Both the position numbers and the translations under genes were made by a program. The notes under the pieces are model-generated. The model ran no database searches. It was given only the letters and a program-made list of their open reading frames with translations, and was not told the DNA's origin. From assembly GCA_049523135.1 (NCBI GenBank), contig JBEKNE010000001.1, positions 210,095 through 274,094 of the forward strand: a stretch of DNA of 64,000 bases. Reading direction: 5' to 3'. Positions 250 through 10,960 of the stretch are shown here, piece after piece. This stretch comes from Candidatus Microgenomates bacterium (GTDB lineage: Bacteria > Patescibacteriota > Microgenomatia > UBA8517). Position 1 is the first letter of the stretch. Every line of letters begins with the position of its first letter.

Positions 250-289
250 AGCCCTGAACAATAAGAAAAATGTTCAGGGCTATTTTTTT
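250..289 (+). terminator. Rho-independent terminator (AGCCCTGAACA..TGTTCAGGGCT + T7)
   Basis: Perfect 11-bp inverted repeat followed by a 7-8 nt T run, seen directly. Confidence 0.8.
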
Positions 290-306
290 GGCAAAACCAG
301 CCTTGC

Positions 307-3692: not shown

Positions 3693-4326
3693 TCCAATCG
3701 GTATAAGAATAGGCAGTTTCCTACCTTGGAAGTCAAGGTGGTTTGCTGATCAGGGAAATTTCCGGAATTTCCTGATTGAGGACGTGAGAATCAGAAAAGA
3801 ACTAACCAAGAAGTTGAAGCTGGCAGGAGTAACCGGAGTTGAAATCGAAAGATTGCCTAAAAGCATGGTGGTAATAATTACGGTTAGCCGTCCGGGAGTT
3901 GTTATTGGTAGAGGGGGAACCGGAATAGAAGATGTTAAAAAGTACATTTTGGGAATTATGAGTGAAGTCAGGAGGAAACCTGTAAAAGATCTTAAGATTG
4001 ATATAAGGATTAATGAAGTAAAAAATCCCGAACTTTCGGCATATTTGGTTGCGGAAAGAATTGCGGGGGAAATGGAAAGAAGAATCCCCCACAGACGTGC
4101 GGTTCAGAAAGCAATTGAACGTGTGATGGCATCCGGAGCTCTTGGGGTTAAAGTAGTTGTTGCTGGTCGTATAAACGGCGCGGAAATTTCCAGAGTTGAA
4201 AAATTCCATCAGGGTTCGGTTCCAACACAAACTTTGCGCGAGAATTTGGATTATGCCCAAGTTCCGGCACTTTTGAAGAGGGGTTATGTAGGGGTAAAAG
4301 TTTGGATTCACAAAAAGCAGGAATAA
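3676..4326 (+). CDS. rpsC: 30S ribosomal protein S3
   Basis: MGQKVNPIGIRIG... KH domain start typical of S3. Confidence 0.95.
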   Translation: MGQKVNPIGIRIGSFLPWKSRWFADQGNFRNFLIEDVRIRKELTKKLKLAGVTGVEIERLPKSMVVIITVSRPGVVIGRGGTGIEDVKKYILGIMSEVRRKPVKDLKIDIRINEVKNPELSAYLVAERIAGEMERRIPHRRAVQKAIERVMASGALGVKVVVAGRINGAEISRVEKFHQGSVPTQTLRENLDYAQVPALLKRGYVGVKVWIHKKQE

Positions 4327-4975: not shown

Positions 4976-5220
4976 AAATTTTTATCGGTAAAGTAATCGG
5001 CACAAAACAAGCAAAAACAGCCACCGTTGCTGTGGAGCGGATGGTTATAGCTCCTATTTACAAAAAAAGATTTAAGAGACTAACCAAGTTTCAAGTTCAT
5101 GACGAAATCGGCGTAAAAGTCGGCGATATGGTTAAGTTCGCAGACTCCCGACCTTACTCTAAAACAAAAAAGTGGAAAATTACTAAAGTGATGGATACCA
5201 AGAAAGGAGCGAAAGCTTAA
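4972..5220 (+). CDS. rpsQ: 30S ribosomal protein S17
   Basis: Gx(V/I)xS.KMxKT..V.VER motif-like start GKVIGTKQAKTATVAVER. Confidence 0.92.
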   Translation: MKIFIGKVIGTKQAKTATVAVERMVIAPIYKKRFKRLTKFQVHDEIGVKVGDMVKFADSRPYSKTKKWKITKVMDTKKGAKA

Positions 5221-7605: not shown

Positions 7606-7968
7606 ATGAAAAAATTACAATTAAAAACAAAAAGATATATTCAAAGAAAAAACCGTGTCAGGTCTAAAGTGGTGGGAAGTGCCTCCCGCCCAAGGCTTTC
7701 CGTTTTCCGGTCAAATAGTCATATTTACGGACAAATTATTAATGATGAAAAGGGAGTAACATTAGTGGCTTTTTCCGACCTGAAAATTAAGAAGGCGGAT
7801 AAAAAGATGACAAAAGTAGAAGTGGCCGGACAAGTTGGAGAAGAAATTGCCAAATTGGCTTTGACTAAGAAGATTAAAACAGTTATTTTTGACAGGAACG
7901 GATTCAGGTTCCACGGCAGAGTTAAAGCTTTGGCTGAAGGAGCAAGAAAAGGAGGTTTACAATTTTAA
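7606..7968 (+). CDS. rplR: 50S ribosomal protein L18
   Basis: RPRLSVFRSNSHIYGQIIND typical L18. Confidence 0.93.
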   Translation: MKKLQLKTKRYIQRKNRVRSKVVGSASRPRLSVFRSNSHIYGQIINDEKGVTLVAFSDLKIKKADKKMTKVEVAGQVGEEIAKLALTKKIKTVIFDRNGFRFHGRVKALAEGARKGGLQF

Positions 7969-7970
7969 AC

Positions 7971-8465
7971 ATGGCAAATTTTAATAGAGGCAGAAACAAT
8001 AATTATCAGGGCCCGCCCAAAGAATTTGAGGAAACTGTTGTCCAAATCAATAGGATCAGCAAGAAAACCAAAGGCGGAAACCAAATCAGATTTTCGGCGC
8101 TGGTTGTTGTGGGTGATAAAAAGGGAAAAGTGGGAGTCGGTCTTGCCAAGGCTACCGATGTGCGAAATGCCATAAGAAAGTCGGTAGATGCGGCCAAGAG
8201 AAAAATGACAATGATTCCTCTTGCGGGAACTACCGTTCCTTACTCCGTTCACGAAAAGTTTTCTGCAGCCGAAGTTTTGCTTAAGCCGGCCCCTCCAGGA
8301 TCAGGAATTATTGCGGGAGGCGCCATGAGAGTTGTACTTGAAGCGGCAGGTGTTAGGGATGCAGTAGGTAGAATTTTAGGAACAAAAAATAAAGTTTCAA
8401 ATGTTTACGCAACACTTAAAGCCTTGGAAAAGATTTCTGAAATAGTTGAAATGAAGAGAAAATAA
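7971..8465 (+). CDS. rpsE: 30S ribosomal protein S5
   Basis: S5 dsRBD + GRRFSALVVVGDKKGKVGVGLAKA region. Confidence 0.95.
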   Translation: MANFNRGRNNNYQGPPKEFEETVVQINRISKKTKGGNQIRFSALVVVGDKKGKVGVGLAKATDVRNAIRKSVDAAKRKMTMIPLAGTTVPYSVHEKFSAAEVLLKPAPPGSGIIAGGAMRVVLEAAGVRDAVGRILGTKNKVSNVYATLKALEKISEIVEMKRK

Positions 8466-8467
8466 TT

Positions 8468-8740
8468 ATGATACGTTTACCAAAAGTCACCGAAAGAAGA
8501 AAAAAGAGAGTTGGACGTGGAATGGGAAGCGGAAAAGGATCCCATACCTCCGGCCGTGGTCAAAAAGGACAAAAAAGCAGAGGAAACAAAATCGGTGTTC
8601 TTTTTGAAGGAATGAAAATGAAAAAGTCTTATCTTAAAAGACTTCCTTTAATGCGCGGAAAAGGAAAATTCCATGCAAAAGTAGGCAGGCGCGAAAAAAT
8701 TGCGGGCTTCAAGGCTAAAAAAGCCAAGACTTCAAAATAA
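8468..8740 (+). CDS. rplO: 50S ribosomal protein L15, N-terminal extended region only (90 aa; C-terminal globular domain missing)
   Basis: RVGRGMGSGKGSHTSGRGQKGQKSRG matches the L15 N-terminus. The ORF stops at 8740 and no L15 C-domain (KVLG..G...A..FS.SA.EKI) is found in any frame downstream. It starts directly after rpsE, so there is no L30. Confidence 0.8.
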   Translation: MIRLPKVTERRKKRVGRGMGSGKGSHTSGRGQKGQKSRGNKIGVLFEGMKMKKSYLKRLPLMRGKGKFHAKVGRREKIAGFKAKKAKTSK

Positions 8741-8764
8741 AAAGTTTATATTTTGGGATATTTT

Positions 8765-8815
8765 GCCAACAAAAAACCTGAAACAGTATCCTTTTTAGGG
8801 GGCCTATTTCAGGTT
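8765..8815 (-). terminator. Intrinsic terminator of the antisense cassette (AACCTGAAA/TTTCAGGTT stem, U-run on minus strand); also closes rplO
   Basis: 9-bp perfect inverted repeat at 8775-8783/8807-8815 with A6 (plus) = U6 (minus) immediately downstream in the minus orientation. Confidence 0.6.
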
Positions 8816-8839
8816 CTTTGCACTTCAATTGCGGTTTTT

Positions 8840-9190
8840 TTAACTGATCAGTACGGTAAGACCTTTTTTGTGAGTACGTCTTTCCAACTTCCTGATCAGG
8901 TCCAGATAATCTTGGTCAGAATAACCATGCGTCCTTCTAACTGTGAACCAGTTATTTATTTCGGCATCTTTAGGATGCACTGACCAAATGTGTTTGTACT
9001 TTCGTTTGCTGGCGTCACCAAAGTGTACGTTTACGCAAACGAACTCGGCCCTATCGTAAATTTCTTTGGCTTGTTGGCCGGTAGTCCATAAGTCGTGTTT
9101 CCAATCGGTATTATCTGGACGGACCTCAACAACCTTTAGATATGGTTGTTCGTGGTAATAATACAAACGAGTGATCCCATCTGGTTCCAT
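8840..9190 (-). CDS. Hypothetical 116-aa protein of the antisense cassette at the rplO-secY junction
   Basis: Strong SD on the minus strand (AAAGGAGAAAAAG-ATG). No recognizable family by eye (YYYHEQPYLKVVEVRPDNTDWKHDLW...). Confidence 0.6.
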   Translation of the reverse strand: MEPDGITRLYYYHEQPYLKVVEVRPDNTDWKHDLWTTGQQAKEIYDRAEFVCVNVHFGDASKRKYKHIWSVHPKDAEINNWFTVRRTHGYSDQDYLDLIRKLERRTHKKGLTVLIS

Positions 9191-9203
9191 CTTTTTCTCC
9201 TTT

Positions 9204-9398
9204 TTAAATATTTCTGAAAATTAGTATGACAACGATTATTACCCCGATCTCAATAGCAATCAATATTTTTTGTTGAGATTTGGATAAACCCGTTAGAAAG
9301 ACCACGAATTTCCGAATCGGCTTTCGTAGAAAATAACCGATCAAGATTGCAACAAAAACAGTAATAACAGTAGTGACCAACACGATTAAAAAATTCAT
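9204..9398 (-). CDS. Small two-TM membrane protein (64 aa), first gene of the antisense cassette
   Basis: Perfect SD (AAAGGAGGTAAA-ATG) on the minus strand; two hydrophobic helices; 13-nt gap to the downstream 116-aa gene. Confidence 0.55.
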   Translation of the reverse strand: MNFLIVLVTTVITVFVAILIGYFLRKPIRKFVVFLTGLSKSQQKILIAIEIGVIIVVILIFRNI

Positions 9399-9670
9399 TT
9401 TACCTCCTTTTTGGTTTGATTGAATGAGTAGCCCTTTAGGTATACCAGGTTACTTTGATATCCAAGGGGCTACCCACTCAAGTTGGAAAGAAAATCCGCA
9501 ATATTTGAAAGTGCAAAACTAAGCCTAAAAAACAAAAATCAGGCTGCAAATTGAGCCTGGCGTTGTTTATTTAGTATCGGGATGCTAGCACAAACAGGAG
9601 GAAAAGTCAAGATTATGGGGTATTGGAAGAACTTCATGGGTAGCTTCAGATTTGGATTTGGATTATAATC

Positions 9671-10960
9671 TTGGAAGTTATGCTTAATTCTGTTGAACAA
9701 TTTTTTATAAAAGCAGTCAGAACTCCTTCTATCAGGAAGAAGCTGATTATCACGGGGATAATTTTGATTGTTTTTAGACTAGCGGCACATATTCCGGCCT
9801 CCGGAATTGATAGAACTACTCTTACGGCGCTTTTTGCGGGTAGCCCGCTTCTTTCCCTTTTGGATGTTTTTTCCGGCGGAACTTTGGCCAATTTTTCAAT
9901 TCTGGCTCTGGGTCTAAACCCTTACATTAATGCTTCGATTATTTTCCAGCTCTTAGGCTACGTTGTTCCTTCAATTGAGGAACTGCAAAAAGAGGGAGAA
10001 TACGGACAGGAAAAAATCAATCAATACACCCGTCTTTTGACAGTACCTCTTAGTGCTCTTCAGGCATTCGGAATGTATGCCCTTTTGAAGGGACAACATG
10101 TAATCTCAAACTTAAGTCCGATTGCGCTTCTTGCACTTGTGATAACAATGACGGCAGGAACAATTTTTGCCGTTTGGCTCGGTGAACTTATTACAGAATA
10201 CGGATTTAAAGACGGAGTTTCAATCCTGATATTTACCGGAATAATAGCCCGTTTGCCGGTTACTTTGACCCAGTCGGCAAGCATTTTCCAGTCTCAGGAT
10301 ATACTTAAGATTGTTATTTTCTTCGCAATAGTGGTACTTCTTGTTGGGCTGATTGTGTTTGTCAGTGAGGCAACGCGCCAGATACCGATTCACTATGCCA
10401 AAAGGCGTACGGAAAGCGGGCTTGCGGCTTCTTCATACTTGCCAATCAGGTTAAATCAGGCGGGAGTCATCCCGATAATTTTTGCAGTTTCCTTGGTTTT
10501 GATGCCTTCTATGATCGGACAATTTTTGGCAAATGTCAGTAATCCCCAGATCGCCGGTTTTGCCCGTTTTTTAACTACAACATTCAGTACGCAGGGAGCC
10601 CTTTATAACGTTGTTTATTTCTTCCTTGTTTTTGGCTTTACATATTTTTACACGGCAGTTGTATTTAGTCCGGAAAAAGTCGCTGAAGATTTGCAAAAAG
10701 GAGGAGGTTTTATTCCGGGAATTAGACCTGGCAAAGAAACGGAGAAATATCTATCTTTTGTCCTTTCAAGAATAACCCTGGTCGGAGGAATTTTCTTGGG
10801 TGCTGTGGCAGTTCTGCCGTCCCTATTCAGAAATTTTGTGGGAACAACCAGCATGGCGGTTGGAGGAACAAGTATTTTAATTATTGTTTCCGTTGCCTTG
10901 CAGGTAATTAGGGAACTTGAAGGGGAACTTGTTATGGAAAGGTATGAGGGATTTCTGTAA
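9671..10960 (+). CDS. secY: Preprotein translocase subunit SecY
   Basis: 10-TM protein with SecY motifs (LGxxPYI.ASII.QLL, GTSxLI); position before adk. Confidence 0.93.
   Translation: MEVMLNSVEQFFIKAVRTPSIRKKLIITGIILIVFRLAAHIPASGIDRTTLTALFAGSPLLSLLDVFSGGTLANFSILALGLNPYINASIIFQLLGYVVPSIEELQKEGEYGQEKINQYTRLLTVPLSALQAFGMYALLKGQHVISNLSPIALLALVITMTAGTIFAVWLGELITEYGFKDGVSILIFTGIIARLPVTLTQSASIFQSQDILKIVIFFAIVVLLVGLIVFVSEATRQIPIHYAKRRTESGLAASSYLPIRLNQAGVIPIIFAVSLVLMPSMIGQFLANVSNPQIAGFARFLTTTFSTQGALYNVVYFFLVFGFTYFYTAVVFSPEKVAEDLQKGGGFIPGIRPGKETEKYLSFVLSRITLVGGIFLGAVAVLPSLFRNFVGTTSMAVGGTSILIIVSVALQVIRELEGELVMERYEGFL

Follow-up and report, generated by a model that had tools for sequence, protein, structure and literature searches.

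In E. coli and B. subtilis, the genes rpsE, rpmD, rplO, and secY of the spc operon are co-transcribed. Here we consider a 64,000-nucleotide (nt) stretch of DNA ("the window") from a Woesebacteria-like member of the Microgenomates, which is part of the candidate phyla radiation (CPR). In the window, rplO encodes a ribosomal protein uL15 (L15) of 90 amino acids (aa), and two open reading frames (ORFs) on the opposite strand lie between rplO and secY. The initial annotation of this sequence started from the premise that rpsE, rplO, and secY are contiguous, and it described rplO as an anomalous stub whose truncation was tied to the insertion of the two genes. Has inserted DNA broken a ribosomal protein gene? 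The genes in question are:

7971–8465, + strand: rpsE (S5), from the ORF list, with the N- and C-terminal domains of Pfam Ribosomal_S5
8468–8740, + strand: rplO (uL15), 90 aa, from the ORF list and a partial match to TIGR01071
8840–9190, − strand: 116-aa ORF, from the ORF list
9204–9398, − strand: 64-aa ORF, from the ORF list
9680–10960, + strand: secY, from Pfam SecY (E = 1e-104) and N-terminal alignment to relatives

Our preferred explanation, which we consider about 70% probable as a whole, combines a short uL15 that is normal for the lineage, an operon break after rplO, and an insertion hotspot at the break that holds a self-contained antisense unit. The C-terminal globular domain of uL15 would have been deleted in frame, with the lysine-rich end retained. 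A conserved promoter for secY would make the rplO|secY boundary an operon break that tolerates insertions. Here the hotspot would have been filled by a 0.86-kilobase (kb) antisense unit that contains, in order, a sigma70-type promoter, a first terminator-like hairpin (T1), a short sequence (boxL), a leader hairpin (H2), the 64-aa and 116-aa genes, an inverted copy of boxL (boxR), and a terminator (T2). T2 would shield rplO from antisense transcription, the spc-operon transcript probably ends at T2 as well, and pairing of boxL with boxR would close the unit's mRNA into a 5'–3' panhandle. The apparent break of a ribosomal protein gene by an insertion then dissolves into a known trait of ribosome reduction in CPR bacteria plus a piece of flexible-genome cargo. 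We see the locus as accessory cargo, of uncharacterised function, that occupies an insertion hotspot.

The short uL15

The window from 8300 to 9900 is 100% identical in eight contigs that were assembled independently and from different samples. This excludes misassembly as well as a sequencing frameshift, which the initial annotation had named as an example of what would refute the truncation.

The 90-aa protein is a uL15 ortholog by its position and its close homologs, despite a score below the family cutoff. Its gene lies directly 3' of rpsE in the spc cluster and starts 2 nt past the rpsE stop codon (window 7968–8470). The gene for L30, rpmD, is absent from between them; loss of rpmD is a known trait across the CPR. 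The order of the remaining genes is that of the spc operon of E. coli and B. subtilis (S8-L6-L18-S5-L15 ... SecY-Adk-Map-IF1). The differences from those operons are the missing rpmD, a promoter-like TATAAT and no Shine-Dalgarno sequence (SD) at secY, and a link between rplO and secY that is broken in much of the clade.

As the initial annotation had noticed, the C-terminal domain is missing. The protein aligns to just positions 9–64 of the 144-position TIGR01071 model for rplO (E = 1.8e-11), with a score of 44 bits (the cutoff is 77.95), and it was not matched in a search with PF00828 (Ribosomal_L27A). The N-terminal Gly/Lys-rich extension of uL15, with the motif GRGxGSGxGKTxGRGxKGQ, is present, as seen both with TIGR01071 and in an alignment of 30 orthologs. 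What remains is this rRNA-binding extension and a Lys-rich tail. Searches with tblastn and with hidden Markov models (HMMs) of relatives' C-terminal domains found no such domain in any frame of the window.

Low scores of this kind could also come from a pseudogene, a sequencing frameshift, or a by-product of the insertion, with the C-terminal domain either lost or encoded separately; the search for a separate domain covered the 64-kb window. We give this account practically no weight. Besides the eight identical assemblies and the absence of the domain from every frame of the window, there are dozens of short orthologs with a conserved tail, including some in genomes with no insertion at all, and short forms have been reported in the literature. 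Specifically, some CPR bacteria have a much smaller uL15 from which the carboxy-terminal region is missing (Tsurumaki et al., RNA 2022, PMC9297842).

Among the 120 best clusters of homologs, 91 have an L15 of 100 aa or less, and several of these are on contigs of 100–800 kb. Short L15 proteins of 76–99 aa that keep the basic tail are widespread across the Microgenomates. We also compared the window to related loci, which we label L001 and up; L006–L036 are 31 relatives from GTDB. L15 has 76–95 aa in eight of these 31 relatives. The basic tail (R/K)(E/Q)K(Y/I)xxFKxKK is common to five of the eight, and those five proteins end with ...K(T/A)SK, as do the long forms. That short and long proteins end alike suggests an in-frame internal deletion. 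In four genomes (L011, L027, L032, and L033), the short L15 is encoded by an rplO that adjoins or overlaps secY, so the truncation is independent of the cassette. Overall, the 90-aa uL15 is the normal short form of this lineage, a trait that is already published and that is under selection, and it is neither anomalous nor tied to the insertion. The initial annotation had itself named the finding of this short L15 in related genomes as a point against it, and on that point the truncation is refuted as an anomaly.

To place the short forms on a species tree, we used S8, L6, L18, and S5 (624 columns; neighbor joining with bootstrap). Genomes with the short form pair with long-form genomes: the window with L017 (79% bootstrap), L016 with L024 (90%), and L033 with L035 (84%). 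Also, the short-form L027 falls inside a clade of long-form Amesbacteria. In other words, short (76–95 aa) and long (131–153 aa) proteins are interleaved among close relatives (L006–L036). This polyphyly points to repeated loss of the C-terminal domain or to exchange of alleles among close relatives, and the sequences suggest one or the other. Repeated loss would bear on which parts of the ribosome are dispensable.

Our results agree with the report of small uL15 in CPR bacteria (PMC9297842): the Microgenomates genome studied here encodes an extension-only uL15 of about 90 aa, and it has no uL30 either. They go beyond that report in that the two forms are interleaved among close relatives, the ...KTSK end is kept, and the loss is independent of what lies downstream. 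As a separate observation, many of the "long" uL15 proteins of Woesebacteria lack the usual terminal ...AGGK helix, and these also fail to match PF00828.

An insertion hotspot between rplO and secY

Across the 31 relatives, the flanking core genes are conserved and what lies between them is variable. In nine relatives, rplO and secY overlap or abut (at most 2 nt apart), and in another four, the gap is 56–127 nt. These arrangements agree with the initial annotation's view that the two minus-strand genes of the window are an insertion. In six relatives, the gap is 0.4–2.3 kb, and in the remaining 12, secY was not found within the 1–3 kb that we had fetched 3' of rplO. For three of those 12 (L049, L050, and L051), we fetched longer flanks, and each has a large island at the junction:

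L049, 10282–19519: 9.2-kb island with 18 genes, including SNase, Nudix, Ham1, and methyltransferase genes
L050, 10288 to beyond 20288: island of over 9.5 kb, including an OLD-family ATPase/TOPRIM nuclease, a TrpR-like protein, an SNase, and a CYTH protein
L051, 4017–8094: 4.1-kb island with two GNATs, a MazG-like protein, and a GDSL lipase

Other islands at the junction hold pairs of RHH/RelE-like genes as well as Nudix genes, and a peptidase of family S51 is also among the cargo. The rplO|secY junction is thus a hotspot for flexible-genome DNA, with anywhere from 0 to over 9.5 kb of unrelated accessory genes. Because the content varies across the lineage, the 0.86-kb insert of the window is one small occupancy state of this site. 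The premise that rpsE, rplO, and secY stay together does not hold in this lineage.

As in flexible genomic islets, conserved flanks surround variable cargo (toxin-antitoxin pairs, nucleases, Nudix and GNAT proteins, an OLD-family nuclease, and ORFans, or proteins without homologs). Unlike the usual islets, the hotspot is inside the near-universal S10-spc-alpha cluster, and there was no tRNA or integrase in the fetched flanks that we examined. Within the window, a tRNA scan found none near the rplO–secY junction. A literature search for an rplO–secY hotspot in CPR bacteria found nothing relevant. A hotspot within such a conserved cluster should be useful for comparative genomics of the CPR, for checking assumptions about the synteny of marker genes, and for finding strain-variable genes.

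Why might insertions be tolerated here? The region just upstream of secY contains a putative promoter:

9638–9679, + strand: secY promoter block, GGTAGCTTCAGATTTGGATTTGGAT-TATAAT, with the same block in relatives

Homolog alignment places the true start of secY at the ATG at 9680. (A mechanical listing had given the TTG at 9671, which we dropped after aligning the N terminus with relatives.) The TATAAT is at 9664–9669, which is 10 nt upstream of this ATG rather than the 11 nt given by the initial annotation, and there is no SD. The idea that secY has a promoter-like element of its own is borne out by its conservation: a block of about 30 nt (CTGTTTTTAGGATCAGnTTTGGGATATAAT), with TATAAT 9–12 nt before the secY ATG and without a Shine-Dalgarno sequence, is shared by all 11 Woesebacteria-type relatives whose secY does not overlap rplO, and it is kept regardless of insertion. 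(The block lies upstream of secY at 9638–9679 in the window and also in L009, L011–L014, L019, L021, L024, L029, and L051.) We infer that the block is an independent promoter that would give a near-leaderless secY mRNA across the clade. Since secY appears to have its own conserved, SD-less TATAAT, the rplO|secY boundary is probably a natural operon break.

The antisense unit and its homologs at other loci

Homology to L047 delimits the unit to 0.86 kb, from about 8761 to 9619. This leaves about 20 nt past the rplO stop and about 60 nt of native secY promoter outside of the unit. The unit's GC content is ordinary and gives no signature of foreign DNA. Besides the two genes, its features are:

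8740–8762: left copy of an imperfect 23-nt direct repeat (AAAAGTTTATATTTTGGGATATT) that bounds the unit
8761–8821, − strand: T2, a terminator hairpin (8769–8821) with a UUUUUUGUUGGCAAAA tail down to 8761, facing rplO
8817–8834, − strand: boxR (CCGCAATTGAAGTGCAAA), which repeats boxL in inverted orientation just past the 3' end of the 116-aa gene
9420–9481, − strand: H2, a hairpin of about 22 base pairs within the 5' leader and directly ahead of the first SD (from the inverted repeat and the predicted fold)
9496–9517, − strand: boxL (TTTGCACTTTCAAATATTGCGG), close to the start of the predicted transcript and complementary to boxR
9527–9559, − strand: T1, a short hairpin and U-run between the promoter and boxL (from the terminator scan)
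9582–9619, − strand: predicted unit promoter (from the promoter scan), with CCCATAATC-TTGACT as the -35 (9605–9610), a 17-nt spacer, and TG-extended TAGCAT as the -10 (9582–9587)
9602–9624: right copy of the 23-nt direct repeat (AAAAGTCAAGATTATGGGGTATT), which overlaps the unit's -35

The two genes are co-oriented and 13 nt apart, and they have the strong SDs that were reported for them: AGGAGG, 4 nt before the 64-aa ATG, and AAGGAG, 6 nt before the 116-aa ATG. The boxes correspond to the pattern TTGCACTTTSAAAT(W)TTGCGG / CCGCAAxxGAAGTGCAA and the promoter to CCCATAATnTTGAC. The promoter motif is unique in the window, and the box motif pair occurs once in the window (0.01 expected by chance). 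Both T2 and T1 have the stable stem-loop and U-run of an intrinsic terminator, which makes them candidate terminators. For T2, which had been described as a terminator facing rplO, the minus-strand fold has a free energy of -27.5 kcal/mol (z = -4.3, with a UUUUUUGUU tail), as compared to z = -1.1 for the plus strand. By way of its A-tract/U-tract pair, T2 is likely to be a weaker stop on the plus strand as well, for read-through from rplO. T1 is terminator- or attenuator-like and bidirectional. An Rfam scan of 8000–10200 gave only chance-level matches.

Homologs of the 116-aa gene are found in quite different places: beside rplS (L001–L004), close to a PDDEXK nuclease (L005), adjoining an epimerase (L047), 3' of an M50-like peptidase (L048), and 3' of dnaB (L053). 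When we scanned the loci of these homologs for tRNAs, we found one near the 116-aa gene in L001 only. The gene is accompanied by the unit promoter, boxL, boxR, and the terminator in L005/L045, L046, L047, and L053, and these non-coding ends are kept although synonymous sites inside the gene are saturated. The promoter is conserved in L005, L024, L046, L047, and L053. T2 is kept, with compensatory changes in its stem, 3' of the homologs in L005, L045, L047, L048, and L053. H2 is present in the window, L046, and L053 and shows covariation (four pairs are changed on both sides). T1 is found in the window and L047, and L053 has a hairpin and U-run of different sequence in the same place; T1 is absent from L005, L024, and L046. 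Because the 116-aa gene occurs with the same non-coding ends at other chromosomal sites, the unit is accessory cargo that relocates.

The L047 unit lies between the counterparts of window positions 297 and 327. Its flanks are 94% and 87% identical to window 263–297 and 327–405, respectively, which locates the L047 unit some 8 kb from the rplO–secY junction, on the upstream border of the ribosomal cluster. The matching flanks are at L047 3–37 and 2589–2664, and they enclose a 2.5-kb island with the 116-aa unit, the epimerase, and a 332-aa ORF. In the window, the sequences that flank this island in L047 (250–297 and 327–405) contain a terminator (AGCCCTGAAC...GTTCAGGGCT plus TTTTTTTGGCAAAA) and a non-coding stretch. 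Here, on the upstream border of the cluster, is a second variable site.

The contents of the unit also vary. The 64-aa ORF is in the window only and is missing from the homologous units of L046, L047, and L053. In L005 (880–1200) and L045 (21–320), the place of the 64-aa ORF is taken by another ORF, about 100 aa long (MKTLGDLQTAMYDY...). Behind it come an incomplete boxR and one half of the terminator hairpin, as though two cassettes had been fused. In L024 (4275–5085, − strand, and 5020–5100), the same promoter and boxL are beside secY in the same antisense orientation and would drive an unrelated ORF of about 230–267 aa, and there is a degenerate boxR-like sequence near 4250–4265.

What do the boxes do? 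In minimum-free-energy folds of the whole predicted transcript, boxL and boxR pair with each other (18 of 22 nt in the window and 17 of 19 nt in L047). The duplex has a free energy of -23 to -28 kcal/mol, versus means of -7 to -10 for shuffled sequences, and the changes in the boxes of L024 and L053 keep the pairing, partly via G-U pairs. Most plausibly, then, the boxes would form a 5'–3' panhandle that, with H2, stabilises or regulates the mRNA. At its 5' end, SD included, the 116-aa gene has 86% DNA identity over about 50 nt between the window (9150–9201) and L005 (1190–1239) despite the saturation of synonymous sites, and this may reflect a constraint at the RNA level on translation start.

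Alternatively, the unit could be a mobile or recombining cassette that is mobilised in trans and swaps its cargo, in which the boxes serve as terminal inverted repeats, sites of recombination, or borders of a segment that can invert, and in which the 23-nt repeat is a scar of insertion or recombination. Inverted boxes do flank a variable cargo (the 64-aa and 116-aa genes in the window, the ~100-aa and 116-aa genes in L005/L045, the 116-aa gene alone in L047 and L053, and another gene in L024), and the unit is at different loci in relatives. The two copies of the boundary repeat match at 18 of 23 positions, a score that was reached by 1 of 2,000 shuffles; the L047 unit is bordered on both sides by TTTTTTTGGCAAAA; and L005 has the extra partial boxR. 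However, the conserved promoter and terminator extend beyond the boxes, which are therefore not the ends of the element. Furthermore, no transposase, integrase, or invertase is in or beside the unit, its orientation is the same in all eight assemblies, and the box motif was found neither in IMG/VR nor in the larger islands that we fetched. Finally, boxR changes that are compatible with G-U pairing (L024 and L053) suit RNA pairing better than identity of a DNA repeat. We therefore see a mobile cassette of this kind as rather unlikely.

We also compared the unit to known elements. Integron gene cassettes are bounded by attC sites and are usually promoterless. Like them, the unit is small, with one or two genes, imperfect inverted-repeat ends, and interchangeable cargo that is often an ORFan; unlike them, it has its own promoter and terminator, and its boxes are unrelated in sequence. 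We saw no R''/R' cores of attC, no IntI, and no attI in the unit or the neighboring ORFs. As for insertion sequences and miniature inverted-repeat transposable elements, the inverted boxes are present but lie inside the promoter and terminator, the direct repeat is imperfect (18/23), and there is no transposase.

A more far-reaching reading is that the unit represents an undescribed class of self-expressing cassette in Woesebacteria or Microgenomates. Such a cassette would have a head (promoter and boxL, with or without H2) and a tail (boxR and terminator) around interchangeable cargo, would form a panhandle, and would relocate between intergenic sites, with the rplO|secY break, which the leaderless-type secY promoter would have created, as a preferred landing pad within the universal ribosomal cluster. 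We propose this tentatively and consider it unlikely.

Because the unit is inside the ribosomal protein cluster, it might instead have a lineage-specific role in regulating the spc operon or secY, by convergent or divergent transcription or via a ribosome-associated protein. Its promoter is divergent from that of secY and about 55 nt away, T2 probably stops read-through from rplO, and the L047 unit also adjoins the ribosomal protein cluster, at the upstream edge. But homologous units are found beside unrelated genes (the PDDEXK nuclease, dnaB, and the M50 peptidase), most relatives do not have the unit at the rplO–secY junction, and the secY promoter block is the same with or without it. A regulatory role of this kind is very improbable.

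The proteins of the unit

The initial annotation treated both minus-strand ORFs as coding. For the 116-aa ORF, this is confirmed: its homologs are 53–69% identical, and the dN/dS ratio (of nonsynonymous to synonymous substitution rates) is 0.096 against L001, which indicates purifying selection, so it is a real gene. For the 64-aa ORF, codon usage gave no separation from spurious ORFs (log-odds of 0.10, as compared to a mean of 0.00 and a standard deviation of 0.20 for spurious ORFs). It has two hydrophobic segments that are predicted to be transmembrane (TM) helices, and a search of protein databases returned only the protein itself, which makes it an ORFan of this population.

The 116-aa family is rare: a set of 5.8 billion proteins contains six clusters of it, and among 1.84 billion, about 15 representative clusters are genuine members. 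Four long matches to the family (of 3,581, 1,240, 521, and 1,508 aa) are TPR, VWD, kinase, and STAND proteins, respectively, and we discarded them as spurious matches to repeats. AlphaFold2 gives a confident model of the protein (predicted local distance difference test score of 90; predicted template modeling score of 0.81) as a soluble alpha/beta protein with the order beta-beta-alpha-beta-beta-beta-alpha-beta. We found no convincing fold match for this model, and a sequence profile search of PDB gave 0 matches. A lead to SUI1/YciH failed on hhalign, and we saw no significant structural or profile similarity to an RNase H-like or SUI1/eIF1-like fold, nor the catalytic DDE/DEDD set of RNase H-like enzymes. 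The invariant residues of the family (R8, P25, W69, F82, and L98) include no obvious catalytic set. As there is no conserved catalytic constellation, our best guess is that the 116-aa protein is a non-enzymatic binding protein, and that the 64-aa protein is a lineage-specific small membrane peptide.

The initial annotation had suggested a toxin/immunity-like pair or a phage remnant. More broadly, the two genes might be a toxin-antitoxin, toxin-immunity, holin-like, or anti-phage pair, with the 64-aa peptide as the toxin and the 116-aa protein as its partner. The arrangement invites this idea: the genes are small, co-oriented, closely spaced, and have strong SDs, and the peptide with its two TM segments is behind a highly structured leader, as in mRNAs for type I toxins. 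The 64-aa protein has a very weak match to the holin family phrog_198 (E = 0.098), and junction islands in relatives do hold toxin-antitoxin and defense genes. However, searches of Pfam, NCBIfam, PHROGs, and PADLOC with the 116-aa and 64-aa proteins and 20 family members gave no family match, be it to toxin-antitoxin, defense, or phage families. A tblastn search against 50,697 phage records found no match, and scans of IMG/VR with a protein pattern and both box motifs found nothing. Moreover, the pair is not conserved: the 64-aa protein is unique, and 116-aa homologs are alone (L047, L053, and L046) or with unrelated neighbors. The leader elements are kept without the 64-aa ORF. As to type I systems specifically, a hydrophobic peptide of under 70 aa behind a long and stable leader hairpin fits, whereas no antisense small RNA is evident from the sequence, the leader is conserved without the peptide, and two TM segments and a length of 64 aa are atypical. 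As to type II systems, there is neither family homology nor a conserved gene pair. We give little credence to such a pair, and the proposed phage origin finds no match either. A rare protein family with conserved non-coding ends and predicted pairing within the mRNA does raise a small and testable question about RNA structure and cassettes.

Several points weigh against our preferred explanation of a short uL15, an operon break, and a hotspot with a self-contained unit. T1 sits between the promoter and the genes and could leave the unit largely silent. The coding status of the 64-aa ORF depends on its consensus SD, its ATG, and its tight spacing to the 116-aa gene. The other nine of the 12 relatives without secY in the fetched flank may have a rearrangement in place of an island. 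The tree on which the short uL15 forms are polyphyletic has 624 columns and was built with neighbor joining only. And the promoters, the terminators, the leaderless secY mRNA, and the panhandle are all deduced from sequence.

Lastly, we noticed that public annotation around rplR and rplO is inconsistent. For rplR (L18; 7606–7968), the window has a 120-aa ORF, and the public call on identical sequence (L037 5223–5426) is 67 aa. The L15 of the window is recorded publicly as a 72-aa product (P0007) that starts at an internal methionine. The ORF list also has a plus-strand ORF of 76 aa (8753–8983, with a TTG start). As it runs antisense to the conserved 116-aa gene, we judged it to be spurious.

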